This document shows positions 7,025-17,575 of a stretch of 64,000 nucleotides of DNA, piece after piece. Positions within the stretch are counted from its first letter, which is position 1. Each line of letters starts with the position of its first letter. The stretch is taken from positions 243,416 to 307,415 of the forward strand of contig CAVPWU010000011.1 in assembly GCA_963709665.1 (NCBI GenBank), written 5' to 3'. Both the position numbers and the translations under genes were made by a program. Source of the stretch: an uncultured Actinomycetota bacterium (GTDB lineage Bacteria > Actinomycetota > Acidimicrobiia > Acidimicrobiales > RAAP-2). The notes beneath the pieces are model-generated. The model ran no database searches. It was given only the letters and a program-made list of their open reading frames with translations, and had not been told where the DNA came from.

Positions 7025-8020
7025 TCAGGTCTGGCTCGCTGGAGAGCGAGGAACGGATGCCATCGTTCGAAGCTCTCGCTCGACATCGGGACCGGTCGGC
7101 GTGTAGATGATCTCCGTATAGCCTGCATCACCCAGACGGTCCAGCTGCCGCGTTATTCGGTCGGGCTCCCCGACCATCGACTTGATGTCGATGTGTGGGA
7201 GGAGTTGGCGGTCCCGATCGGGGAGATGGGTTGCGTGACCGTCGAACGTCAGCAGGTGTCGCTGGTTCGGGGGTGCCAGGGCCTCAAGGGCCTCACGCCA
7301 TGCCCGTCCACCGGGCAGATCGTCCACCGCCTCGGCACCTCCGTTGGCGTAGGCATTGTGCCAGTCGACAACCCGCCATGCCCCAATGGAATTCCGGACC
7401 CGGTCTGACCCTGGATCCTCGCCTGGCTCAAGCACAGTGCCGGACACGATCATGGCTGCCGGCAGGGTTGGGTGGGGCAAACCGATGATTCCATCGGCCG
7501 CTTCACCGGCCAGCGCACGTCCCCGTGGCCCGAAAACGCTCAGCCAGAGTGGGACAGCGACAGGCCGGGCCTCGGTCAGTCCGGGTGCGTGGAGCATCCG
7601 GGCGGGCGCTCCGTCAACCAATACGATCTCCCCGGCCAGAAGCTGCCGCAGGGCGGTCACGTATTCGACGAGGGCAGTGAGGGTCATCGCCCGCTGACCT
7701 ATGGCCAGGCGGGCAGTGAAGCCGGTGCCGAAGCACGCCCGGAGGCGGCCCCCCGAAATCCGGGCCACCGTGACTAGCGCCGAGGCCATGGCCATCACGG
7801 ATCGCTGAGTCGGGATCAACACGGCAGTGGCGAGGCCGATGCGCTCAGTCCTCTCGGCGGCGAGGGCAAGATGGACGAAGGGGTCCTCCCACAGCGGAGC
7901 GGAGTCGTAGATCCACACTCGGGCATAGCCGAGTTTCTCGGCGAGCACCGCCAGGTCGGCAAAGTTCGGTCCCGGAGGAAGCCCGCACGACAGCTCGAAC
8001 TTACCCATGACGCGATTCAC
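7025..8020 (-). CDS. LLM-class (luciferase-like) flavin/F420-dependent oxidoreductase.
   Basis: 331 aa with ...LAEKLGYARVWIYDSAPLWEDPFVHLALAAERTERIGLATAVLIP... typical of the luciferase-like monooxygenase fold. Confidence 0.8.
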   Translation of the reverse strand: MNRVMGKFELSCGLPPGPNFADLAVLAEKLGYARVWIYDSAPLWEDPFVHLALAAERTERIGLATAVLIPTQRSVMAMASALVTVARISGGRLRACFGTGFTARLAIGQRAMTLTALVEYVTALRQLLAGEIVLVDGAPARMLHAPGLTEARPVAVPLWLSVFGPRGRALAGEAADGIIGLPHPTLPAAMIVSGTVLEPGEDPGSDRVRNSIGAWRVVDWHNAYANGGAEAVDDLPGGRAWREALEALAPPNQRHLLTFDGHATHLPDRDRQLLPHIDIKSMVGEPDRITRQLDRLGDAGYTEIIYTPTGPDVERELRTMASVPRSPASQT

Positions 8021-8155
8021 GTTTCGGGGTTAGTGCCTCGGCATGGATGGCGTCGATCTCTATGTCCTCAAGGCCGCTCCACCACTGGTTGAAGATCAAC
8101 ATCGACGCAGTATCCCAGCATGGGGACGTGGTCTCACTCCCGGCGATCGGGGGAG

Positions 8156-8794
8156 CTACCCAGCATCCCCACACGCTCGGAAGGCATAGTCCGAGAGTTC
8201 ACGAACGTCGGCTCTGGTGGCCTCGTTTGATCGGACTGCCGCTGTCGCAGTGGATGATCCGGCTATGGCAACGAGCCTCCTGACTGTCGGCTGCAACGAA
8301 GCCGGAAGCGAGGAGACCAACCGACCAGCGCTGGCTTCGCTCATATCAACCGCCCTGACGATTGCCAGGCGGTCTGCGGGCGCCGGATCGGTCACTCCGT
8401 CCGTCAAGATGTTGATCCACTCGGGGCCGTCATCCGATGAACCGTCAGTGGCATCGAAGGACTGGAGTTCTCCGACGTTCACGCTATTCAACTGGTAACA
8501 GGGGTCGGGGCCGAGATTCGCGAGCGACTGCTTCGTAGCGAAGCTTGTTGCTCCGACTACCAGCACCACCAAGGGAACGGCGATGAGCCAACGGCGAGCT
8601 GGTGCCCAAACCAGGAGACACAGACCGATCAGACCGACACCGATGATGGCTGCGATGACCGACCAGGTAGGGAGTCCAAAGACTCCGGACGGAGGGGGCG
8701 GTTCGGTACGCATGTAGAGAACCGAGTCAAGAACTCCAACGACGATCACGGCCATGGCGGCGAGACAAAGAGCAACAAGGGTTTGCTCTTTCAT
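8156..8794 (-). CDS. Hypothetical integral membrane protein.
   Basis: 212 aa with three N-terminal hydrophobic segments followed by a soluble domain. Confidence 0.6.
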   Translation of the reverse strand: MKEQTLVALCLAAMAVIVVGVLDSVLYMRTEPPPPSGVFGLPTWSVIAAIIGVGLIGLCLLVWAPARRWLIAVPLVVLVVGATSFATKQSLANLGPDPCYQLNSVNVGELQSFDATDGSSDDGPEWINILTDGVTDPAPADRLAIVRAVDMSEASAGRLVSSLPASLQPTVRRLVAIAGSSTATAAVRSNEATRADVRELSDYAFRACGDAG

Positions 8795-8857
8795 TGGTCG
8801 TTGGCGAGAGATGGAGTCATCATTCCATCGGATTCCCTCCCTGTCCCGAATGTGTTG

Positions 8858-8890
8858 TTACACGGGTGATCCACGGGCCCTGGACCGAGG
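8858..8890. repeat. Left inverted repeat of E2.
   Basis: The sequence is TTACACGGGTGATCC-ACGG-GCCCTGGACCGAGG. It matches the reverse complement of 11291-11321 with a 15-nt exact core plus about 11/14 further matches and a 2-nt indel. Confidence 0.6.
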
Positions 8891-8905
8891 CCCATCGAAG
8901 CACAG

Positions 8906-10204
8906 TCAGCCGACGCCGTCGACGTCGTGGATGAGCTTCTCGAAGAGGACGATCCGGTCGCCCTGGTCGTGTTCGGCGGCGTGGTCTCGTTGGCGCTTCA
9001 GGATCGGGATGAACTGGGGACCGGTCTCGAAGAAGGTGCAACGCTCGCAGGCGGACTCGAAGGAGCAGCCCAAGGCGGCTGGGCGGGTGCACATCCCGTT
9101 GCCCAGCATCCTCCGATGGTCGGCCGCCAGTCGGCGCATGTTCGACCCGGCCGCATCGTCCGGAAGGGCTTCCGTTCTTCCGTAGTTGGCTTCGACGGCC
9201 TCGGTCACCCGGAAGTACTCGTCAGCCACCGTGCGGTCCGAGATCCGGGCATAGGTCATGGTCATCCGCATCGACCGGTGGCCGAGAAGGGCGGCGATCG
9301 CCTCCAGGCTCATGCCCCGGTTGATGGCTTGGGTGGCCAGGGTGTGGCGGAGCTGGTGGGGATGGACGTGTCCGACGCCGGCCCGCTTGGCGACCGCTTC
9401 GACATAGCGGTGGATGGTCCGGCGGTCGAAGGGTTGCCCGTCGTTGCGGACGACCAGATGGCCGGAATGGCTCGGCCCTCTGGTTCTCCGGTAGTCGGTG
9501 ATGAGGTCGACCAGGATGGGGTGGAGCGGCACGTAGCGGTCGTTGTGCAGCTTCCCCACTGGGATGCGCAGCCAGAAGGTCTCGCTGATCTGCACCATGG
9601 CGTCGTCCTCGAGAGCAGCCAGTTCCCCGACCCGCATGCCGGTTCTGGCCAGCAGTTCGACCATCAGTCGCCGACGAGGGTTGGGGTCGACACCCAGGGC
9701 GGCCATGAACCTGGCCATGGTGGGGTCGTCCAAGAACTTGGGCAACGGCTCGTCGGCCTTCGGGAAGTCCCCGGGAAAGATCGGCACCCGGGCCGGGGCG
9801 TCGTCATAGCCCCACTCGATGATCCGCTCGAAGAAGGTCCGGAGCAGCCCGAGGCGGTGCCGAATGGTGGTGGTCGAGAGCAGCTTCCCGCGTTTGCCGG
9901 GCCGGGCGGCCTGCCAGATCTTGAAGTCCTCGATGTGGCGCCGCTCGACATCGGCGACGGCCACGCACCACCGGTCGGCCTCGGTCACCCGGCCGGCGAA
10001 GAACCGCAGGGCGATGTCGAAGGCGGAGACGGTTCCGGGTCGGGCCGACACCGACAGCTGGTCCAGGTAGGTGGCCATGGTGGAGGCCATCAGGGGCGCA
10101 CGCTGGGCAATCTCTCCCCAGGTGATCTCCGGCCCAGCACCTCCGAAGCGTCGATTGACCGGCTCATCTGGCCCGTTGAGGGATGGGATCGCAAGCGCGG
10201 TCAT
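8906..10204 (-). CDS. Tyrosine recombinase/integrase with a C-terminal Cys-rich tail.
   Basis: The catalytic set is visible: ARTGMRVGE (R), VGKLHNDR (K), HQLRHT, LGHRS, TYARI (Y). The tail is CTRPAALGCSFESACERCTFFE. The ATG overlaps the upstream stop (ATGA at 10201-10204). Confidence 0.9.
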   Translation of the reverse strand: MTALAIPSLNGPDEPVNRRFGGAGPEITWGEIAQRAPLMASTMATYLDQLSVSARPGTVSAFDIALRFFAGRVTEADRWCVAVADVERRHIEDFKIWQAARPGKRGKLLSTTTIRHRLGLLRTFFERIIEWGYDDAPARVPIFPGDFPKADEPLPKFLDDPTMARFMAALGVDPNPRRRLMVELLARTGMRVGELAALEDDAMVQISETFWLRIPVGKLHNDRYVPLHPILVDLITDYRRTRGPSHSGHLVVRNDGQPFDRRTIHRYVEAVAKRAGVGHVHPHQLRHTLATQAINRGMSLEAIAALLGHRSMRMTMTYARISDRTVADEYFRVTEAVEANYGRTEALPDDAAGSNMRRLAADHRRMLGNGMCTRPAALGCSFESACERCTFFETGPQFIPILKRQRDHAAEHDQGDRIVLFEKLIHDVDGVG

Positions 10205-11244
10205 CGGGCCATCCCCACGTTCGCCTGGGCGTCGATGGCCTCGGCGGCCCGCCGATACTCGTTGGCCAGCCAGTCACCTCCGAGGTGGAGGTAGATCCGG
10301 GTGGAGGCGATCGACCGGTGTCCGGCCAGCGCCTGGATGGCCTCGATGGCCATGCCCGCCTCCTTCAGACGGGTGAAGCAGGTGTGGCGGAGCTCGTGGC
10401 AGGTCCCGTGGGTCAGGCCGACCCGGGCCCGGGCCGCCCCGAAGACCTCGTCGAGCCCGTCCGCCGACAGGGGAGCGCCCCGTCGGGGCTCCCGCAGCAC
10501 CACGAACAGCCGGTCGGTCGGGGCATCGGGCGGTCGTTCCCGGTTCAGGTAGTCAGCCACCGTGGCGAAGAAGGTCGAAGAGATGGGGACCAGGCGCTGG
10601 TGACCTCCCTTGCCCTCGGCGATGAACAGCTGCTTCTCGCCGACCCGCAGGTCCTCCAGGCGCAGACCCAGCACCTCGCAACGGCGGAGCCCGCCGAGCA
10701 ACATGGCCTGGGCCATGGCCCGGTCCCGATCGGTCCGGAACGACGACATCAGCAGCTCGACGTCGCCGGCGTCGAGGATCCGGGGCAGCCGTCGCACCCC
10801 TCGCACCAACGGCACACCCCGTTGGTCCCGATGACGGCTCCGTCGGGTGGGCATCCCCCGGGGGACCGGGTTGGCAGCCAGGGTGGTGTCTCCCCGGAGG
10901 ACCACGTAACCGAAGAAGGCCGACACCGCCGCCAGCCGTCGTTTGATGGTGGCCGGCGACAAACCGGACAGGCCGTCGCTGATCCGGACCACGTTGTCGA
11001 CTCCGGACCTCGAACGCTGCTGGGCGGCGATGAAGCCGAGGACGTCCTTCGGCGTCACCTCGGTGGGATCCTTGGTCACCACTCCGAAGAAGATCTTCAG
11101 GTCGTGGGCATAGGCCCGCACCGTGCTCGGTCGGCACCGCACCGACGCGAACTCGAGGAACTCATCGACCAGCTCGTGGCCGACTCGATAGGTCTTGTGA
11201 CCATCGGACCCGACAACACACTCGAATACCGGACTCCACTGCAC
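10201..11244 (-). CDS. Tyrosine recombinase/integrase (XerC/D-like size).
   Basis: The catalytic motifs are GGLRRCEV, EGKGGHQR, HELRHT, AGHRS and IYLHL. An N-terminal SAM-like core-binding domain is present. Confidence 0.9.
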   Translation of the reverse strand: MQWSPVFECVVGSDGHKTYRVGHELVDEFLEFASVRCRPSTVRAYAHDLKIFFGVVTKDPTEVTPKDVLGFIAAQQRSRSGVDNVVRISDGLSGLSPATIKRRLAAVSAFFGYVVLRGDTTLAANPVPRGMPTRRSRHRDQRGVPLVRGVRRLPRILDAGDVELLMSSFRTDRDRAMAQAMLLGGLRRCEVLGLRLEDLRVGEKQLFIAEGKGGHQRLVPISSTFFATVADYLNRERPPDAPTDRLFVVLREPRRGAPLSADGLDEVFGAARARVGLTHGTCHELRHTCFTRLKEAGMAIEAIQALAGHRSIASTRIYLHLGGDWLANEYRRAAEAIDAQANVGMAR

Positions 11245-11290
11245 GCCGCACCTCCTGGTTGGACTTCCACCCGAGGAAGGTTCCTCGTGT

Positions 11291-11351
11291 GGTCAGTCCA
11301 GAGGGCGGATCACCCGTGTAAGTGCCGTTCAGGGACGTTTCACCCGTGTAA
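11291..11351. repeat. Right inverted repeat of E2, plus a second direct copy of the 12-mer TCACCCGTGTAA.
   Basis: TCACCCGTGTAA occurs at 11310-11321 and again at 11340-11351, with 30-bp spacing. Confidence 0.6.
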
Positions 11352-11639
11352 TCGCGATATTGGGACGGACTGGGAGAATCGGTCAGTCGATAGTCCGCCG
11401 GCAAAGGGGATCTCCCACCGTCCCAACGTCACCCTCAATGTCATCCTCCGTGGTCAGGCGACGATTTCGACCCAGTGGTGGAAGGCTGGAAGCCCTCTGC
11501 CAAACGCCGCCAGCGCCAGTCCGGGTCCGATGGACAGTCCTGCCGTCCCCGCATCGCCCCCCGGCCACCTTGAACACGATTGCGAAGGGGGTCCCTTGGG
11601 GCTGAGGGCAGCTCTGGCCGGACTCGGGACACAGACACC

Positions 11640-12100
11640 ACTTGCGCCATGTCTTCTCCTCCGCAGCGGCTCCGGCTGGCGGGACGGTAACGCCGCACAA
11701 TGGAGTGCACTGATCGGATCCTGGCCGCCTCGCTCGACCTCCCGAACCGCACCGACCCCACAGCCATGGTGATGAGCCGAGCTCGGTTCTGACGACCGCA
11801 ACGGGCGTCCGGGGCGGGCATCGAGCCCGCCCCGACCGCGAGGTGGCGATGACAGACGCGTGGGGCCGGACCTGGACAACAAGTCCACACAGTTGCACCA
11901 GAGGATGCGGTCCCGATACGTCCTGTTTCGTCCCAGAATGCCGGGGTCCGCGAGCGGCAACGGCGAGCCCCGTGAGGCGCCTCCGGGTGTGGACTTCGTC
12001 GGTGCCACCTCGCATTCACCACCCCGTGTCGGTCGGGCCCCGGACCAGCGAGGGTGACGTTGTAGTGGGGGAGACGCATATTCGATTGGCTTGTATTCGA
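11640..12100. repeat. Left inverted arm of E1.
   Basis: Blocks shared in inverted orientation with the right arm are 12075-12100, 11883-11896, 11813-11831, 11761-11769 and 11645-11653. This arm has an extra ~165-nt segment (about 11897-12074) with no counterpart on the right. Confidence 0.55.
11813..11831. repeat. GC-rich hairpin repeat, copy in reverse orientation.
   Basis: The sequence is GGCGGGC-ATCGA-GCCCGCC. Its reverse complement matches 15443-15461, and the similar flank extends to about 30 nt. Confidence 0.5.
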
Positions 12101-12131
12101 GAGCCTGACCACTGGCGGTGGGGTTCGGCCA

Positions 12132-13574
12132 TCAGAAGTTGGTTGTCTGGCGAGCCTTGGCGGCGGCATAGGCGGCCCAGTCGGTGCCGAGGGCGGCGGC
12201 CCGGTTGGCGACGGTGTTGCGGTGGTAGCCGAGTGAGCCGGAGATCAAAGGGGCGGGGAGCGTGCCGATGAGTCGGGCCAGAGCCGCCTGGCGACCCGCT
12301 CGGGTGACGCCCAGCCCGGACAGCTGATGGGACAAGGCCCGACCCGACAGATGGCTGTCCGGGAAGTTGCCCGGGAACAGCCAATCGGCTGTTCCGGTCG
12401 GTGTTCGGGAGTCGAGCAGCTCGGTCAGCAACGCCGCCATCGGGGCCGGGAGCGGCACCGGATTGGCACCGAGGGTCAGGAAGATCTCCCCGTGGCGGTC
12501 CTCGATGTCGGCGAGGGTGAGATCGCAGATCCGGTTGACCGACTGGGCGAGTCCCAGCACCAGGCACCCGGCCAGTCGCCCGCGGAGGTTGATGCTGTCG
12601 TCGCCCAGGAGCTCGTCGAGCAGCCGCCGCCGGTCGGACTCCGGGCCCGGCGTGAAGGACCGGACCGGGGGCTTCGGGAAGCTGAGCGTCGGGCGCCGGT
12701 TGAGCCGCCCCACCCAGCGGATGAAGTCCTCGGCGGACCGGGGGTTGGAGGCGGTGGCGAACCAGGCATCAAGGTCGGATTGGGCGACGGTGGCAACCGT
12801 CCGGCCGCGGGTGGCCAACCAGCTCAGCCAACGGAGTCCGGCATTGGCCCGGTTCCGACAACCGGCGACCCAGCTGTAGGCCAGGGGGCCGTCTTGGGCC
12901 CGGTCGACCAGGTCCCGGTGGTGCCGCCAGACCAGGTAGGTGCGCAGCAGGCGCCGGTGCTCGGGGTCGCCGATCACCTCCAGGAAGCGCACGCTCCACC
13001 GCTCGAAGTTCCCGAGCTGGGTGTCCCGACGGTCGATGACGCCCGCCCCCATCAGCAGCTGGCGGAGGTAGTCGACCTCCCGGCCCGGCGGCAGCGAGTC
13101 CACGCCGGCATAGTCGAGGGTGACCGTGCCGTTGGCCAAGGTCCGGAGCCGGTCGGCGGTTCCTCCCCGGCTCAGCCAGATCAGCCGTGCCCAGGGTCGG
13201 CCGGTGGAGGTGATCAGCTCCACCAACGGCACCAACGCCGGGGTGACCTGGCCGGTCCCGTCGTCGAGGAGGGCGGCCAGCCGGCGCTGCAGCGAGCAGG
13301 CCAGGCAGGTGGCGGAGAACCACTGCTGGCCTTCGGCCCCACAGGTGGCGCAGAGGAACGAGCGGGGAATCGCCGCGGAGTCGACGCAGAGACCTGCTCC
13401 CTTCCCATCGCGCCCGGGCAGGAGCCGGTCGACCCCACAGCCCGCACACGGTCCTCGCCGCTGGACAGCGTGGCGCAGACAGGTCCGACACACCGGCCCC
13501 TCCGGCCAGGTCTGACACGCCCGCTGCGCCCGGTGGCAGCGGGCGCACTCCACCCGCTTGGCCGGGGCGGTCAC
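12132..13574 (-). CDS. Zn-ribbon-rich protein with a divergent tyrosine-recombinase-like C-terminal domain.
   Basis: GTG 13574 overlaps the upstream stop (GTGA). The N-terminus has five CxxC motifs (CARC, CRTC, CAGC, CATC, CLAC). The C-terminus reads ...NRICDLTLADI...LGYHRNTVANRAAALGTDWAAYA. It is integrase-like, but I cannot see the canonical HxxR box. Confidence 0.7.
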   Translation of the reverse strand: MTAPAKRVECARCHRAQRACQTWPEGPVCRTCLRHAVQRRGPCAGCGVDRLLPGRDGKGAGLCVDSAAIPRSFLCATCGAEGQQWFSATCLACSLQRRLAALLDDGTGQVTPALVPLVELITSTGRPWARLIWLSRGGTADRLRTLANGTVTLDYAGVDSLPPGREVDYLRQLLMGAGVIDRRDTQLGNFERWSVRFLEVIGDPEHRRLLRTYLVWRHHRDLVDRAQDGPLAYSWVAGCRNRANAGLRWLSWLATRGRTVATVAQSDLDAWFATASNPRSAEDFIRWVGRLNRRPTLSFPKPPVRSFTPGPESDRRRLLDELLGDDSINLRGRLAGCLVLGLAQSVNRICDLTLADIEDRHGEIFLTLGANPVPLPAPMAALLTELLDSRTPTGTADWLFPGNFPDSHLSGRALSHQLSGLGVTRAGRQAALARLIGTLPAPLISGSLGYHRNTVANRAAALGTDWAAYAAAKARQTTNF

Positions 13575-13900
13575 CGGTTCGGGTCGACCCGGGCCCGCCG
13601 GGGCCGCCGCCGGGCGGCCAGATCGATGGGGGGCGGATCGCCCTCGCCGGGCCGGGGCGGCAACCCGGCCGCCACCCCGATGAGGTCGGCGGGCGTGCAC
13701 GAGAAGATGTCACAGAGAGCAGCCAGGGTGGGGAGCGAGATGCGCTCGGGCACCCGGGCGGCCATCCGGTAGACCTGGGCGGTGGAGAGGTGGACGCCCC
13801 GGTCGGCCAGCAGCGGGAGCAGATCGGTGGTCTTCCAGACGCCGTGGGCGGCCATCACCTCCCGCAGCCGCCAGCTGTAGGTCACCGACCGGGTGGTCAC
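13571..13900 (-). CDS. XRE/Cro-type helix-turn-helix protein.
   Basis: GTG 13900 overlaps the recombinase stop (GTGA at 13897-13900). The HTH is HLSTAQVYRMAARVPERISLPTLAALCDIFSCTPADLI. Confidence 0.75.
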   Translation of the reverse strand: MTTRSVTYSWRLREVMAAHGVWKTTDLLPLLADRGVHLSTAQVYRMAARVPERISLPTLAALCDIFSCTPADLIGVAAGLPPRPGEGDPPPIDLAARRRPRRARVDPNR

Positions 13901-15009
13901 GATCCGGCCACCTTCCGGGATGGCCCCATCACCACGGCGTCCAGGGCGCTCCGCAGCATCCGGGTGCGGTAGTCGGAGGAGACCGAGGTGTAGATGGCGG
14001 TGGTGGAGGCGTGGCGGTGTCCCACCTGCTGCTGGACGAAGAGCACGTCGAAGCCGTCCTCGATCAGGTGGGTGACGTAGGAGTGGCGGAGGGAGTGCGG
14101 GCTGAGGGCGGTGTCCAGCCCGGCCTCTTTCGCCGCCGAAGCGAACGCCGAGTTGAGCCGGTCCTCGCTCACCCGGTCGTCCCGCTCCGAGGGCCACAGG
14201 CCCGCCGCCCCCTCCCGGCGGACCGAGGGCCAGATGTCCGTCGTCCACTCGTCCATCACCTCGGCCGTCCAGCCCATCACCGTGAGCACCCCCCGACGCC
14301 GGGGGCCCGACCCGTTGGCCGCCTTGCCGAAGCGGACCTGGCAGACCCCGAAGTCACCGAACTCGGGGGCCTGGGGGTTGGCCCCGAAGTCGTGGCGCTC
14401 GAGCATCACCACCTCCCGGCGGCGCAGGCCCCAGCCGTAGGCGACCTTCAGCATGGTGGCGTCCCGGAACGCCGGCACCCACCCCTTGCGGCCTCCCATC
14501 CGGATCCGGTCGGCCCGGGCGTCGGCGGCGTCGAACAGGTCCTGGCACTCGGCCCGGGTCATCGACCGTCGCCCGGGCCGGGCCTCGGCGTCGACCACGT
14601 GGGACATCGAATTGGCCCCCGAACAGATCTGGACGGGGTGGGTCCCGAAGCGGGTGAGGCACTCCCCGTCCCAGCCGTAGACGGGGTCGCAGACGTAGGC
14701 CAGAAAGCCCCGGAGGCTGAGCTGGTAGCTCCGGAGGGTGGACGGTGCCCGGTGCTCCATCCGCAGCTCTGCCGACCACGTCTCGAACCCGGCGGGTGTC
14801 CACGCCCAGGGGAACGACGACGCCGACTCCTGGAAGCGACGGACCACCCGGGCGCCGGCGTCGATGGTGGCGAACGACAGGCTCCGAGCCAGTTGCTGGG
14901 CCCGCCAACCGTCGAGCATCGCCTCGAACACCGCCGACTCGGGATCCAGCTCCACGACACCGTCGACCAGGCTCAGATGAGCCGCCCCGACCACGTTCCT
15001 GCCTTGCAC
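13897..15009 (-). CDS. Tyrosine recombinase/integrase.
   Basis: 370 aa with GWGLRRREV (R), FGKAANGSGPRRR (K), HSLRHS, VGHRH and IYTSV (Y). Confidence 0.9.
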   Translation of the reverse strand: MQGRNVVGAAHLSLVDGVVELDPESAVFEAMLDGWRAQQLARSLSFATIDAGARVVRRFQESASSFPWAWTPAGFETWSAELRMEHRAPSTLRSYQLSLRGFLAYVCDPVYGWDGECLTRFGTHPVQICSGANSMSHVVDAEARPGRRSMTRAECQDLFDAADARADRIRMGGRKGWVPAFRDATMLKVAYGWGLRRREVVMLERHDFGANPQAPEFGDFGVCQVRFGKAANGSGPRRRGVLTVMGWTAEVMDEWTTDIWPSVRREGAAGLWPSERDDRVSEDRLNSAFASAAKEAGLDTALSPHSLRHSYVTHLIEDGFDVLFVQQQVGHRHASTTAIYTSVSSDYRTRMLRSALDAVVMGPSRKVAGS

Positions 15010-15025
15010 AAGGCCACCCTTCGTG

Positions 15026-15063
15026 GTCGCAACTGACGCGCTGATTCGATCATCAGTTGCGAC
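15026..15063. promoter_or_regulatory. Perfect 11-bp inverted repeat just upstream of the E1 recombinase start. It could be an operator or a 5' hairpin.
   Basis: The repeat is GTCGCAACTGA (15026-15036), a 16-nt spacer, then TCAGTTGCGAC (15053-15063). It lies 17-54 nt upstream of start codon 15009. Confidence 0.4.
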
Positions 15064-15285
15064 TGAGACAAGGGATGCCTGGTCAGCGAGGTGAGGACCG
15101 GTGAACCCAACGTCACCCTCGACGTCACCTCACCGACGAACTGCCTGGTCACACGACAGAACGGGACCCGCCAACGAATACGCATCCATTCGAATATGCG
15201 GCAGTGGCATTGCCCAATGCAACTGTGTGGACATGACCCTCCAGCTTCAGTCGCACAACCAGGAAGTCACTACCCAAGGCGCCAC

Positions 15286-15304
15286 GGCGGGCTCAATGCC
15301 CGCC
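15286..15304. repeat. GC-rich hairpin repeat.
   Basis: GGCGGGC-TCAAT-GCCCGCC. Confidence 0.5.
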
Positions 15305-15442
15305 TGGGCGCCTCCTCGTGCCATGGGTGCGGGGAGGCTCCGTGAGGATCGCCAGGAGGTCGACCATCCCATGATGCACAGGTGTGGGAGTTCTCGTACG
15401 GCTCCGGCGACGCCGACCCTCTGCTTCCTCCTCGGCGGACAT

Positions 15443-15461
15443 GGCGGGCTCGATGCCCGCC
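15443..15461. repeat. GC-rich hairpin repeat.
   Basis: GGCGGGC-TCGAT-GCCCGCC followed by CGGGCCGCCC. The reverse complement of the 11.8-kb copy is followed by CCGGACGCCC. Confidence 0.5.
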
Positions 15462-15517
15462 CGGGCCGCCCTGGGGTGACCGGCGCCACGGCACTCCCCA
15501 ACGTTGGCCCCAGGGGC

Positions 15518-15940
15518 TTAGGCGGCAACGTGGAGGGCAATACCGAGCTCCTCGGTGGCACCAGCGAGAAGCCCTCCGACGTTCCGCTCCGAGCCGAACC
15601 ACAGGGCGCTCCCGTTGTGGAGTCCGGCGGCGAGCGTCTCGTCGATGAGCCACCCCCCGCCAAACCGGGCCCCAATCCGAGCTGCCTCATCGAGAAGGGG
15701 GCGGGGGTCGAGGATCTGCAGAACCTCCGGATGTGGGAACCGGAGCGTGTCACGATCAGTTGGCGTCAACGCAGCCAGTCTCCGGGAGAGCTGCCCACCA
15801 CCTGGTCCGTGGATGCGCTGCAGGAGCCGCCAGTGCCGGCTCGAGGAAGGACCGGGTCTTCGGTGTCGGGGAGGTCCGCTGGCCATCCGTCGCTGGCGAA
15901 ACACCACGCGGATGGCCAGGTACTCGTCGATCACGATCAT
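15518..15940 (-). CDS. Putative PIN-like toxin of a type II toxin-antitoxin pair.
   Basis: 140 aa starting MIVIDEYLAIRVV. It lies 21 nt downstream of a 62-aa ORF on the same strand. The assignment rests on size, organisation and the N-terminal motif only. Confidence 0.45.
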   Translation of the reverse strand: MIVIDEYLAIRVVFRQRRMASGPPRHRRPGPSSSRHWRLLQRIHGPGGGQLSRRLAALTPTDRDTLRFPHPEVLQILDPRPLLDEAARIGARFGGGWLIDETLAAGLHNGSALWFGSERNVGGLLAGATEELGIALHVAA

Positions 15941-15961
15941 CGCGACAGGTGGATGATCGAT

Positions 15962-16150
15962 TCAGTCGGCGTCTGCCTGGCCACCGAGAAGGGGATCCGC
16001 AGTCAGATCGGCGTCAAGTGCAGCCTGGAACTCCTCGGCCAGATCGCCCGTGGTGATCTGGGAGATGATCTTGCGACCTTCCTCGGTGACGCGGGGGTCT
16101 CCGGCCCGCCGGCGCAGGCGCTTCTGCTCGGTCAGGTCTGCAACGGCCAT
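15962..16150 (-). CDS. Putative antitoxin: a small acidic protein upstream of the PIN-like ORF.
   Basis: 62 aa with a basic N-terminus and an acidic C-terminus (..DADLTADPLLGGQADAD), in a typical TA gene arrangement. Confidence 0.4.
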   Translation of the reverse strand: MAVADLTEQKRLRRRAGDPRVTEEGRKIISQITTGDLAEEFQAALDADLTADPLLGGQADAD

Positions 16151-16285
16151 GGCCCAATTATGCCTGTCGGCCCCTCATTGCGCCACGGGTTCAGGGGCGG
16201 CAGTACTCCGCAATGTGCCTCGTCGAAGGATTTTGGGCGTGCTGGATCGGTACACTGAAGCAGACGATCTTCGCTGGCCCGACCG

Positions 16286-16315
16286 GTGTGTTGGGTCAGG
16301 TCCGACCCAACACAC
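16286..16315. other. Perfect 12-bp stem / 6-nt loop hairpin in otherwise non-coding DNA.
   Basis: GTGTGTTGGGTC-AGGTCC-GACCCAACACAC. Confidence 0.5.
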
Positions 16316-16517
16316 GCCCATCCTCGAGCTGACGGATTGGGATCGTCTGATCGCTGAGAATCCTGTTCTCAACCCAACTTTCAACCCAACAATTGCGTCT
16401 CAGCGTGTCACATCGCTCACCGCCCAGTTTCGAGGTCCGGTGGACCGAGGCGGTCGGACCTGGGAAAATGAGCCGGGCCGGGACGAGGTGTGACCTTGCG
16501 CGATTCTCGAGAGTCCT

Positions 16518-16559
16518 CTTGTAATCGTCAGGTCGTGGGTTCGATTCCCACCGCCGGCT
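16518..16559 (+). tRNA. Orphan 3' half of a tRNA-Thr(UGU)-like gene. It is not an intact tRNA and is probably an att-site remnant.
   Basis: The parts in order are CTTGTAA (anticodon loop, TGT), TCGTC, AGGTC (variable loop), GTGGG-TTCGATT-CCCAC (T arm), CGCCGGC (acceptor 3' strand) and T (discriminator). No GCCGGCG 5' acceptor strand, D arm or pairing 5' anticodon stem lies upstream. Confidence 0.6.
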
Positions 16560-16650
16560 CGCTGTCATCTCTCAAGAGATAGGCAACATCCGAACCCACG
16601 GCCTCACGAATTCCGGGGGCCGGCCGGGACCCCGGGGCCCCGGCGGCGGG

Positions 16651-17004
16651 TCACGGTGTGTCGATGGCCTCCCGGAGTGCGGCCAGGCGGTCACGGTTCA
16701 GCGAGTACCAGACCCAACGACCCCGCTTCTCGCCCTGGATGAGGCCGGCCTGGCTCAGGATCTTCAGGTGGTGGGAGATGGTGGGCTGCGACTTGCCGAG
16801 CGGGTCGACGAAATCGCACACGCACACCTCACCGCCGGAGGCGTCCGCCAACATGCTCAGGACCCGGAGCCGGACCGGGTCGGACAGCGCGCTGAACCCG
16901 GCAGCCAGCTCGGCGGCATCGGCCGCGCCCAGAGGGGCGGAGAGGACCGACGGGCAGCACCGGTCGACTGACCGGACCTCCGGTGCGGAGGTCGTCTCGG
17001 GCAT
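16651..17004 (-). CDS. ArsR/SmtB-family metalloregulator.
   Basis: The signature is LSDPVRLRVLSMLADASGGEVCVCDFVDPLGKSQPTISHHLKILSQAGLI. The start is taken at MPETT (17004). Confidence 0.85.
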   Translation of the reverse strand: MPETTSAPEVRSVDRCCPSVLSAPLGAADAAELAAGFSALSDPVRLRVLSMLADASGGEVCVCDFVDPLGKSQPTISHHLKILSQAGLIQGEKRGRWVWYSLNRDRLAALREAIDTP

Positions 17005-17016
17005 CTGATCAACCTT

Positions 17017-17038
17017 CCCATTGACGAACGTGAATGGG
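17017..17038. promoter_or_regulatory. Near-perfect 22-bp palindrome in the divergent arsR / cadI-like intergenic region, a candidate ArsR operator.
   Basis: In CCCATTGACGAACGTGAATGGG, 9 of 11 positions pair. Confidence 0.5.
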
Positions 17039-17086
17039 TCGATCATACTCGACGCATCGACGTCTGTGAATGTAATGGAGGTTCCC

Positions 17087-17575
17087 GTGTCCCGAGTCCA
17101 GCTGGCCCTCAACGTGGCAGACCTCGACGTGGCCGTCGACTTCTACTCCAAGCTGTTCGGCACCGGACCGGCCAAGCGCCGGCCCGGATACGCGAACTTC
17201 GCCATCGCCGACCCTCCCTTGAAGCTGGTGCTGATGGAGAGCACCGCCGGCCGGGGGCACGGCGTGGAAGGAGCCCTCAATCACCTCGGCGTCGAGGTGG
17301 CGACGGCGGGGGAGGTCGCCGAGGCGTCGGGTCGGCTGAGTGGCGGGGGCCTGACGACGGAGGTCCAGGACGCGACGACCTGCTGCTTCGCCGTCCAGGA
17401 CAAGGTGTGGGTCGAGGACCCGAACGGCGTTCCCTGGGAGATCTACACCGTGTTGGCCGATGCCCCCGCCGAGACCGGGATCGCCGGCGACGGATCGTGC
17501 TGTGTCCCCGAGACAGGCCGGCCGGACGACGTGACGGTGGGAACGACCCCGTCGCCGTCCACCGGCTGCTGCTGA
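17087..17575 (+). CDS. ArsI/CadI-family VOC (glyoxalase-fold) metalloenzyme.
   Basis: VSRVQLALNVADLDVAVDFYSKLFGTGPAKRRPGYANFAIADPPLKLVL...TTCCFAVQDKVWV closely follows the M. tuberculosis CadI sequence as I recall it. GGAGG lies 5 nt upstream of GTG 17087. Confidence 0.85.
   Translation: MSRVQLALNVADLDVAVDFYSKLFGTGPAKRRPGYANFAIADPPLKLVLMESTAGRGHGVEGALNHLGVEVATAGEVAEASGRLSGGGLTTEVQDATTCCFAVQDKVWVEDPNGVPWEIYTVLADAPAETGIAGDGSCCVPETGRPDDVTVGTTPSPSTGCC

Follow-up and report, generated by a model that had tools for sequence, protein, structure and literature searches.

A 64,000-nt stretch of the genome of an uncultured member of the Acidimicrobiales (assembly GCA_963709665.1, contig CAVPWU010000011.1, positions 243,416 to 307,415; hereafter the window) carries three co-oriented tyrosine-recombinase genes on the minus strand within 6.1 kb. 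The locus raises the question of whether these genes are parts of one composite element, such as a rearranged recombinase trio of the RIT type, or of separate elements that lie side by side. The comparison of copies of the region points to a nest of three independent units, namely the elements E2 and E1 and a repeat designated M, inside a 27.8-kb genomic island at a tRNA-Thr gene. We assign a probability of about 75% to this reading, according to which E1 and E2 were never a single unit and went separately, each to a target specific to it, into an M of ~1 kb that was already there. The copies of E2, E1 and M were recovered by BLAST with the region as the query from the contigs of the window's own genome (G000; 3.86 Mb, 72% G+C, 11 contigs, C1 to C11), and they include M copies that have no E2 or E1. 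The comparison also covered a congeneric genome (G004), a locus of another member of the Acidimicrobiales (L067), the locus L099 and a genome of a different genus (G019). The preliminary description of the window was right in calling the recombinases of 347, 432 and 370 aa intact: all three have full-length Phage_integrase domains in which the R...HxxR...Y columns are kept. A fourth, degenerate recombinase-like protein of 469 aa is encoded at 12132-13541.

The copies of E1 fix its boundaries. E1 is a mobile element of 3,144 bp (12063-15206, minus strand) with boundaries ambiguous by 2 nt (TG) and imperfect subterminal inverted repeats around CGCATATTCGA (12075-12085) and TCGAATATGCG (15190-15200). 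Copies that are 99.5-99.65% identical to it lie between different flanks at C6:15292-18435 and C8:1-3144. Long, diverged inverted arms (11803-11839/15435-15471 and 11880-11897/15218-15235) had previously been taken for the ends of E1; they flank the element in the window copy only. The window flanks of E1, 11909-12062 and 15207-15461, directly adjoin each other at C8:3145-3603, and the C8 copy of E1 occupies another position, in inverted orientation, that corresponds to 11908|11909. Without the interruption, the sequence on C8 is ...CGAGGGTGACGTTG|GCATTGCCGAATGCAACTGTGTGGAC, and the expected sequence of the empty site is ...GACGTTG|GCATTGCC.... Since the two halves are contiguous on C8, the long arms are not the ends of E1 but belong to a separate 0.53-kb inverted-repeat module, M2. 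Its left half (11803-12062) holds an unoccupied inverted E1 target, GTCCACACAGTTGCA (11883-11897), and its right half (15207-15471) contains GC hairpins and the occupied target TGCAACTGTGTGGAC (15218-15232), 11 nt from the E1 end. The position that corresponds to 11908, where E1 lies on C8, is also where the contigs C3 and C10 stop. As E1 spans 12063-15206 and not ~11640-15465, the gap between E1 and E2 is 741 nt instead of the ~290 nt given before. For annotation, this means that co-oriented recombinase genes and long arms can mimic a composite element, and that copy-by-copy comparison shifts the boundaries.

The sequence that fills this gap is M (11322-12062 and 15207-15471), a non-coding repeat interrupted by E1. 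Its segment 11322-11908 recurs at C3:1-601 (95%) and C10:104807-105389 (93%), in both cases with no E2 on the left. The left part of M (M-left, 11322-11802, plus strand) begins with GTGCCG..TTTCACCCGTGTAATCGCGATATTGGGACGG, and its copies at C3:108-601 and C10:104807-105294 are 92-95% identical. The first ~115-280 nt of M align with sequences at C3:25818, at C1:175197 and in G004, each of them directly upstream of genes for a TrwC relaxase and an AAA_30 helicase (Pfam), and M-left can be aligned with the DNA that precedes the relaxase genes at C3:26243 and C1:174809 and in G004. The window, C3-start and C10 copies have no relaxase gene, and M-left is therefore an orphan relaxase-upstream region. 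Three blocks are conserved in this region: GTGCCG-GTAGGGGACGCTTTCACCCGTGTAATCGCGATATTGGGACGG, then ~55 nt on CAACGTCACCCTCCCTGGTCA, and finally CCTTGAACACGATTGCAAGGGG just before the relaxase start. By these alignments, M-left is a copy of the conserved region upstream of the TrwC-type relaxase genes of Acidimicrobiales integrative mobilizable islands. By its position, this block, which starts with GTGCCGGTAGGGGACGC, is possibly proximal to the origin of transfer (oriT), or is itself an oriT or promoter region. No strong coding signal in the G+C content of third codon positions (GC3) was found in 11322-11908. In relatives only the first ~54 nt of M recur, in G004. Two other identities for M were discarded: the Rfam search of 8000-17500 at E <= 1 returned two chance-level matches only, which rules out a known RNA, and the similarity stops at ~15461-15471, which rules out a longer segment shared among islands.

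E2 (8852-11327) is a Tn554-related transposon with a recombinase pair between perfect 15-bp inverted arms. Its left end (8852-8872) consists of the 6-mer GTGTTG (8852-8857) and the arm TTACACGGGTGATCC (8858-8872), a perfect inverted repeat of 11307-11321, and its right end (11307-11327) consists of the arm GGATCACCCGTGTAA (11307-11321) and GTGCCG (11322-11327), the 6-mer with which M begins. GTGTTG and the left arm are identical at the same end in the other G000 copies, in genome G013 and in G004. Only two genes lie between the arms, both on the minus strand and overlapping by 4 nt, and tnpC (DUF6262) is not found in E2. The short recombinase (10201-11244, 347 aa) is TnpA-like with PF00589 and SAM-like domains, and the long one (8906-10204, 432 aa) is TnpB-like with a Cys-rich C-terminal tail (PF00589, 1.1e-29). 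Besides the window copy, G000 contains E2 copies at C3:23341-25892 (90.7% identical) and C11:233965-236454 (92.5%, both genes frameshifted). The latter, a decayed copy, lies ~7 kb left of the window in the same island and ~90 nt from the cluster of sequence boxes (see below) upstream of the island's xis-like gene.

A described counterpart of E2 is on the Rhodococcus plasmid pREL1, where a 341-aa recombinase, 54% identical to the short E2 recombinase, has as its neighbour a 611-aa recombinase, whose C-terminal 420 aa are 52.7% identical to the long one. This plasmid is listed among the actinobacterial Tn554-related elements as a Famint36/41 variant without TnpC (Van Houdt et al. 2012, PMC3414803). 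The Tn554-family reference, an Enterococcus plasmid locus obtained through tblastn, encodes a 630-aa TnpB followed by a DUF6262 TnpC-like gene, and the long recombinase is 27.6% identical to this TnpB (E = 1e-29). In a maximum-likelihood tree of 37 proteins and 317 columns, the long recombinase groups with the Tn554-family TnpB (98/97), and the short one groups, more weakly, with a C-terminal fragment of TnpA (70/93). In common with the known Tn554-related pairs (Famint36/41, pREL1; PMC3414803), E2 has two adjacent, co-oriented recombinases homologous to TnpA and TnpB, one ordinary and one larger, with catalytic residues in both, a 4-nt overlap and no TnpC; insertion of these pairs is specific for site and orientation, which may hold for E2 too. 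E2 differs from pREL1 in that its 432-aa long partner is without ~190 N-terminal residues of the 611-aa form, and from the known pairs in its Acidimicrobiales host, its perfect 15-bp inverted arms and at least three insertions at the edge of a block upstream of TrwC relaxase genes. E2 is thus an additional member of the Tn554-related pairs; it takes them into the Acidimicrobiales and adds a recurrent, sequence-defined insertion site on mobilizable islands. The length of the long recombinase varies among relatives, from short forms of 412-435 aa to 611 aa on pREL1 and 780 aa in G004 (L033, G004:C27), so N-terminal extensions come and go.

The same tree bears on the suggestion that an ancestral RIT unit was split by insertions and an inversion, the genes of 370, 347 and 432 aa being descendants of ritA, ritB and ritC. 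RIT elements resemble the elements of the window in being compact, in ending in inverted repeats and in encoding several tyrosine recombinases of the "simple", Xer-like kind, and three co-oriented tyrosine-recombinase genes within 6.1 kb would fit such an origin. The RIT sample comprised 3-4 proteins each of RitA, RitB and RitC, all from plasmid pHG1, whose trios also served as the positive reference for RIT architecture; RitA reportedly has two core-binding domains and RitC an extra C-terminal helix (PMC8138268). Each family formed a clade without window proteins (RitA 100/99, RitB 100/99, RitC 98/98), so that no window recombinase is a member of a RIT clade as represented by this single plasmid. 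The E1 recombinase belongs to its own clade together with the E1-like recombinases of G004, G046 and the Streptomyces plasmid pSGE (100/100). Deep sister relations were checked by approximately unbiased (AU) tests, which rejected the long E2 recombinase with RitA (p = 0.024) and did not reject pairings of RitB with the short one (p = 0.29) and of RitC with the E1 recombinase (p = 0.27), so that a deep kinship with RitB or RitC may exist. On architecture, RIT membership fails. RIT elements have three adjacent, co-oriented and overlapping rit genes in one element, whereas in the window the genes of 347 and 432 aa overlap, the E1 trio is 2.6 kb away and the two elements are independent. No inverted repeat pairing ~8858 with ~15465 was found, and thus no single outer pair encloses 8858-15465; E2 has its own arms, and the outer arms once ascribed to E1 belong to M2.

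The occurrence of the elements elsewhere also contradicts a common unit. E1 and E2 have separate copies in G000, and their relatives, those on plasmids included, show without exception a recombinase pair for E2 and the set of recombinase, HTH and Zn-ribbon genes for E1. G010 and G026 have the E1 marker but not that of E2; G026 is an unpublished genome, and only G010 is counted as evidence here. G013, G014, G016 and G059 have the E2 marker but not that of E1, and in G004, G019 and G046 the two markers are on separate contigs. The two are accordingly not always together as one block in the genomes compared, they keep their own architectures, and a rearranged RIT-like trio is extremely unlikely. 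One further contig deserves mention. The 7.8-kb contig C14 of G019 (L034) carries a frameshifted fragment of an E1-type recombinase between one decayed and one intact E2-like pair, and this pile-up hints that such elements accumulate in the same places.

The right flanks of E2 define its insertion site. In all three G000 copies (the window copy and copies 2 and 3) and in G013, the tnpA-proximal arm borders on GTGCCG, with KTMRGGG next to it, and right flanks with GTGCCG and KTMRGGG are common to five insertions. The more specific pattern of right arm, GTGCCG and GTAGGGG is seen in the window copy and also in copies 2 and 3, in G013 and at L067. At L067, an E2 relative with recombinases of 69% and 67% amino-acid identity has the same GTGCCG|GTAGGGGACGC junction in the same orientation, followed by the box and by a relaxase that is 86-89% identical. 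The E2-M junction is also found beside an intact relaxase on C3. The window, C3 and L067 therefore represent at least three independent insertions at the edge of the relaxase-upstream block, while unoccupied blocks on C10, in G004 and at L099 start exactly at GTGCCG with unrelated left flanks. It seems that E2 would insert in one orientation, with the tnpA-proximal arm against sequences of the GTGCCG-GTAGGGG type. The 6-mers at the two E2 ends are unequal, GTGTTG on the left and GTGCCG on the right, and the more distant relatives in G016 and G014 have CCGGCG at both sides. Unequal 6-mers would fit an insertion without target duplication and the 6-bp footprints reported for elements related to Tn554 (PMC10214605); no donor/target pair was seen among the insertions compared. 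From these junctions, the empty site is predicted to be the left flank joined to GTGCCGTTCAGGG, and the circle to be right arm, 6-mer and left arm in this order.

The same flanks could be read in a different way, with the first 50-125 nt of M (GTGCCG, a second CACCCGTGTAA and the box) as an extended right end of E2 and the E2-less copies as remnants of sites from which E2 was lost. The arm core CACCCGTGTAA does recur in direct orientation 19 nt past its first copy, all E2 right flanks, those of G013 and G016 included, match the first 15-30 nt of the block, and a solo arm adjoins the block at C3:602-648. On the other hand, the E2-less blocks with their exact GTGCCG start and unrelated left flanks stay conserved over ~300-480 nt and in several genomes run into the start codon of a relaxase gene, and copy 2 and G013 diverge from the block after ~20 nt. 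An extended E2 end is thus quite unlikely in our judgement. The solo arm itself, GATCACCCGTGTAA followed by CCGTGGCATAA and GTGCCG, occurs at C3:602-648 and C5:117645-117691. A third element ("E3") starting at C3:602 was considered and discarded, as the stretch shared with C5 is only 47 nt and corresponds to a solo arm, not to an element. On C3 it abuts the M-left copy, and it may be a relic or a miniature element.

In E1, genes 2 and 3 were resolved by GC3 frame analysis (with a frame shift between the genes) and translation. Gene 1 (13897-15009, minus strand) encodes the 370-aa tyrosine recombinase with the catalytic motif (PF00589, 7.5e-21), gene 2 (13571-13897, minus strand) a 108-aa XRE-type HTH protein (PF13443 HTH_26, 2.9e-14), and gene 3 (12132-13541, minus strand) the 469-aa protein, which combines N-terminal multi-Cys Zn-ribbons with a degenerate, tyrosine-recombinase-like C-terminal half. 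The match of the latter to PF00589 is partial and weak (2.9e-4), and so is its alignment with the recombinase profile by hhalign (E = 8.7e-4, probability 23%). In its family the Cys columns, WLFPG, an invariant Arg and a near-invariant Tyr are kept, and HxxR is not conserved. The 96 homologues found are mostly unnamed, and matches occur on 230 plasmid records. Relatives of ~667-820 aa exist, in which N-terminal extensions come and go. Many homologues lie on public metagenome contigs of 3.0-3.4 kb, approximately the size of E1, which would fit an assembly of such elements into free-standing repeats or circles.

The target of E1 is equally precise. The right end of E1 is exactly 11 nt from the 15-mer TGCAACTGTGTGGAC at three sites, in the window, on C6 and in the C3-start sequence that should adjoin the C8 copy, and this common spacing indicates that insertion is specific for both site and orientation. 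The 15-mer is present in both arms of M2. The targets of E1 and E2 sit ~740 nt apart in the same repeat, which explains why the two elements are neighbours. Of the explanations offered earlier, the insertion of one element next to the other at a preferred site comes closest; what has to be changed is that neither element targeted the other; both targets are inside M. The predicted circle junction of E1 is ...GCGGCAGTG joined to TAGTGGGGG.... Between the box pair of E1 and the recombinase start there is also a perfect 11-bp inverted repeat, GTCGCAACTGA-N16-TCAGTTGCGAC (15026-15063), with GCAACTG in common with the target 15-mer, which could be an operator or a second recognition site.

The order recombinase, HTH and Zn-ribbon gene is conserved in G004, G010, G046, G019 and the Streptomyces plasmid pSGE, and a full-text literature search did not find a published description of an E1-type element. 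E1 is a widespread three-gene variant. Set beside the SE/GInt elements (intA-tfp-intB-srap; PMC10214605) by gene content and description rather than by protein sequence comparison, E1 is similar in its catalytic recombinase accompanied by a partner that, like Tfp, apparently keeps a recombinase-like fold without the full RHRY, in its target specificity and in having no DDE or HUH enzyme. It differs in having three genes instead of the four core genes, with one catalytic recombinase, an XRE-type HTH protein, N-terminal Zn-ribbons and no counterpart of IntB or Srap, and in its Actinomycetota hosts. The family is present on at least 230 actinobacterial plasmid records, where its genes are annotated only as integrase, HTH regulator and hypothetical protein. 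Its three recent copies and its precise target make E1 well suited to the study of what may be a sixth type of tyrosine-recombinase transposon.

A segment shared by the surroundings of E1 and E2 had been noticed before, and its copies are where they were placed: CCCAACGTCACCCTC is exact at 11422-11436 and 15106-15120, 178 nt from the gene start at 11244 and 97 nt from that at 15009, and the inverted CAACGTCACCCTCG is at 12049-12062. The length of ~55 nt was overestimated, as the gap-free similarity covers only 27 nt and past a gap only TGGTCA is colinear. The gap-free match of 11422-11448 with 15106-15131 scored 37, compared with 18.4 +/- 2.1 for shuffles (maximum 26), and the three motif matches compare with 0.54 expected, a count of 3 being reached in 0/100 shuffles. 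The first copy (11422-11448, plus strand) contains two tandem boxes 12 nt apart, on the minus strand GGATGACAT tgag GGGTGACGT; it is the middle block of the relaxase-upstream region with a tandemly duplicated 12-mer. The second copy (15106-15131, plus strand) lies inside E1, 97 nt before the start of the recombinase gene; its minus strand shows two GGTGACGT boxes at a spacing of 12 nt, and beyond it come a 24-nt insert and then CTGGTCACAC, as in the relaxase-upstream version. The E1 pair reads GGTGACGTcgagGGTGACGT on the minus strand, and in M the second box is degenerate. The third copy (12049-12062, minus strand) is an inverted box that forms the last 14 nt of M before the left junction of E1; the 14-mer is exact there, and the inverted CCCAACGTCACCCTC matches 12050-12064 with two mismatches.

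Boxes of this kind are found on other islands as well. Relaxase genes of G000 and G004, and those of at least eight other Acidimicrobiales loci, have a homologous single box, CAACGTCACCCTCCCTGGTCA, in the corresponding upstream position. Clusters of 3-5 boxes spaced by 12-45 nt lie upstream of HTH_17 (xis-like) genes by integrases on the C3, C8 and C7 islands, with a C3 cluster at C3:31026-31126, and degenerate clusters are present on C6 and C11. Adjacent box pairs within 60 nt numbered 24, compared with 5.4 +/- 2.3 expected. A scan with 17 specified bases (AACGTCACCCTCNCTGKT) of 185,579 species genomes, one genome per species, matched at least 114 stretches, a number that by a rough estimate is roughly at chance level, and a large share of these were metagenome-assembled genomes of Acidimicrobiales. 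At least eight matches lay 200-460 nt upstream of relaxases that are 77-92% identical to the G000 ones, and others adjoined xis-like and integrase genes. The shared segment is thus a cis-element of Acidimicrobiales mobilizable islands, made of paired GGTGACGT boxes one helical turn apart. The boxes, placed singly or in pairs ~300 nt upstream of relaxase genes and in clusters by xis-like and integrase genes, would be bound by a DNA-binding protein encoded by the island or the host, and because of this the expression of the E1 recombinase may follow the state of the island. The E1-like elements of G004, G010, G046 and pSGE have no boxes upstream of the recombinase, and hence the present E1 lineage acquired them. 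As a conserved cis-element of an Acidimicrobiales island family, the boxes make their binding factor worth identifying. Two candidates were rejected: island paralogues of the E1 HTH protein, and TraB/FtsK proteins, for which the boxes would be recognition repeats (clt) like those of actinomycete conjugative elements, as the only FtsK_SpoIIIE gene is chromosomal, on C2.

The preliminary description had listed, as one of three explanations, a role of the segment as a recombination or regulatory site shared by both elements. The motif is indeed upstream of the first gene in each element and in the same orientation, and the E1-type fragment between E2-like copies in G019 would suit such cross-talk. 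E2, however, stops at 11321/11327, so the 11422 copy lies outside its arms and belongs to M, in the orphan relaxase-upstream block that is found without E2 on C10, in G004 and at L099. Of the three E2 copies, one (copy 2) lacks the direct-orientation motif. E1-like elements elsewhere are without the motif, and the recombinases of E1 and E2 fall into different clades. Direct cross-talk between E1 and E2 is thus very unlikely, while cross-talk between E1 and its host islands is possible. Alternatively, the boxes could be E1's own sites, bound by its HTH or Zn-ribbon protein, with box-bearing DNA cueing the insertion of E1 to locations of the relaxase-upstream type. In the window the insertion abuts the inverted box, the C6 copy is 100-180 nt upstream of a TrwC relaxase with two boxes ~60 nt from the left junction, and a box pair is near the right end of E1. 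No box adjoins the C8/C3 junction, though, and the feature conserved at all three insertions is the 15-mer TGCAACTGTGTGGAC, not the box. Together with the box-less E1 relatives and the wide distribution of boxes in Acidimicrobiales islands without E1, this makes ownership of the boxes by E1 unlikely, and we prefer to regard them as an island element.

Several observations weigh against the reading of independent elements with island-borne targets and boxes. The flanks of E2 copy 2, G013 and G016 match only the first 15-30 nt of the block and have no relaxase nearby, and for this reason what follows the arm could belong to the E2 end itself instead of a target. No relaxases were found adjoining the E2-like or E1-like loci of G004, G010, G013, G014, G016, G019 and G046, nor in the plasmid neighbourhoods of such elements, so that the target of E2 may be just a short sequence contained in the block incidentally. 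As for the C8 copy of E1, which begins at the contig end, its outer flank was deduced from the C3 and C10 contig ends. For the movement of E1 or E2 there is no experimental or read evidence: in four soil metagenomes, low-coverage fragments were found, and contigs, which may come from the sample behind the genome assembly, bridge both E1 junctions, but no alternative joints, empty sites or circles were seen at this low coverage, at which uncovered parts prove nothing. In the C6-type relaxase subfamily the motif falls inside the coding sequence, and thus not every occurrence is a regulatory site. G000 contains no paralogue of the E1 HTH protein outside the E1 copies, and a promoter and terminator scan of 11250-15500 gave nothing, with no sigma-70-like promoter predicted.

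The island that surrounds the nest extends from the tRNA-Thr(TGT) gene at C11:232102-232175 to attR (16518-16561, plus strand), a 44-nt exact repeat of the 3' part of this gene, and contains E2, M and E1. A 398-aa integrase gene and a convergent HTH_17 xis-like gene lie just inside attL at the tRNA end (C11:232102-233450). An integrase by the tRNA gene, the 3'-end direct repeat at the far border, the xis-like gene and relaxases in related islands are the features of a tRNA island or integrative mobilizable element (IME). No relaxase was found in the window's own island, and the related tRNA islands on C1, C3 and C6 carry TrwC relaxases. A comparable arrangement is known from the IME_oriT of Firmicutes (PMC7563843), which are also small integrative elements attaching at a conserved transfer-related sequence of another mobile element; they have their own relaxase and an experimentally defined oriT, whereas E1 and E2 encode no relaxase and use a conserved relaxase-upstream block with a putative role in transfer. 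We tentatively put forward, as a rather doubtful proposal, that E2-type elements are "island hunters" homing in one orientation to the edge of a probably oriT-proximal block, that E1 targets a neighbouring 15-mer and captured a GGTGACGT pair by which its recombinase would be switched with island activation, and that both would hitchhike on mobilizable islands.

Some minor observations concern the islands. The C3 relaxase (L003, C3:26123-29470) is split into 697 and 409 aa, compared with a single 1075-aa gene on C1 (L007, C1:171585-174809), and C3 also has an AbiEi/AbiEii toxin-antitoxin pair, located between its relaxase and xis-like genes. In the window, a putative pair of PIN-like toxin and small antitoxin at 15518-16150 had no Pfam match at E <= 0.001. 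Finally, the 43-nt 3' part of tRNA-Arg(ACG) has six recurrences on C4 and another on C6 (C4:320-81940, C6:7301-22820), which suggests tandem accretion of several islands at one tRNA gene.

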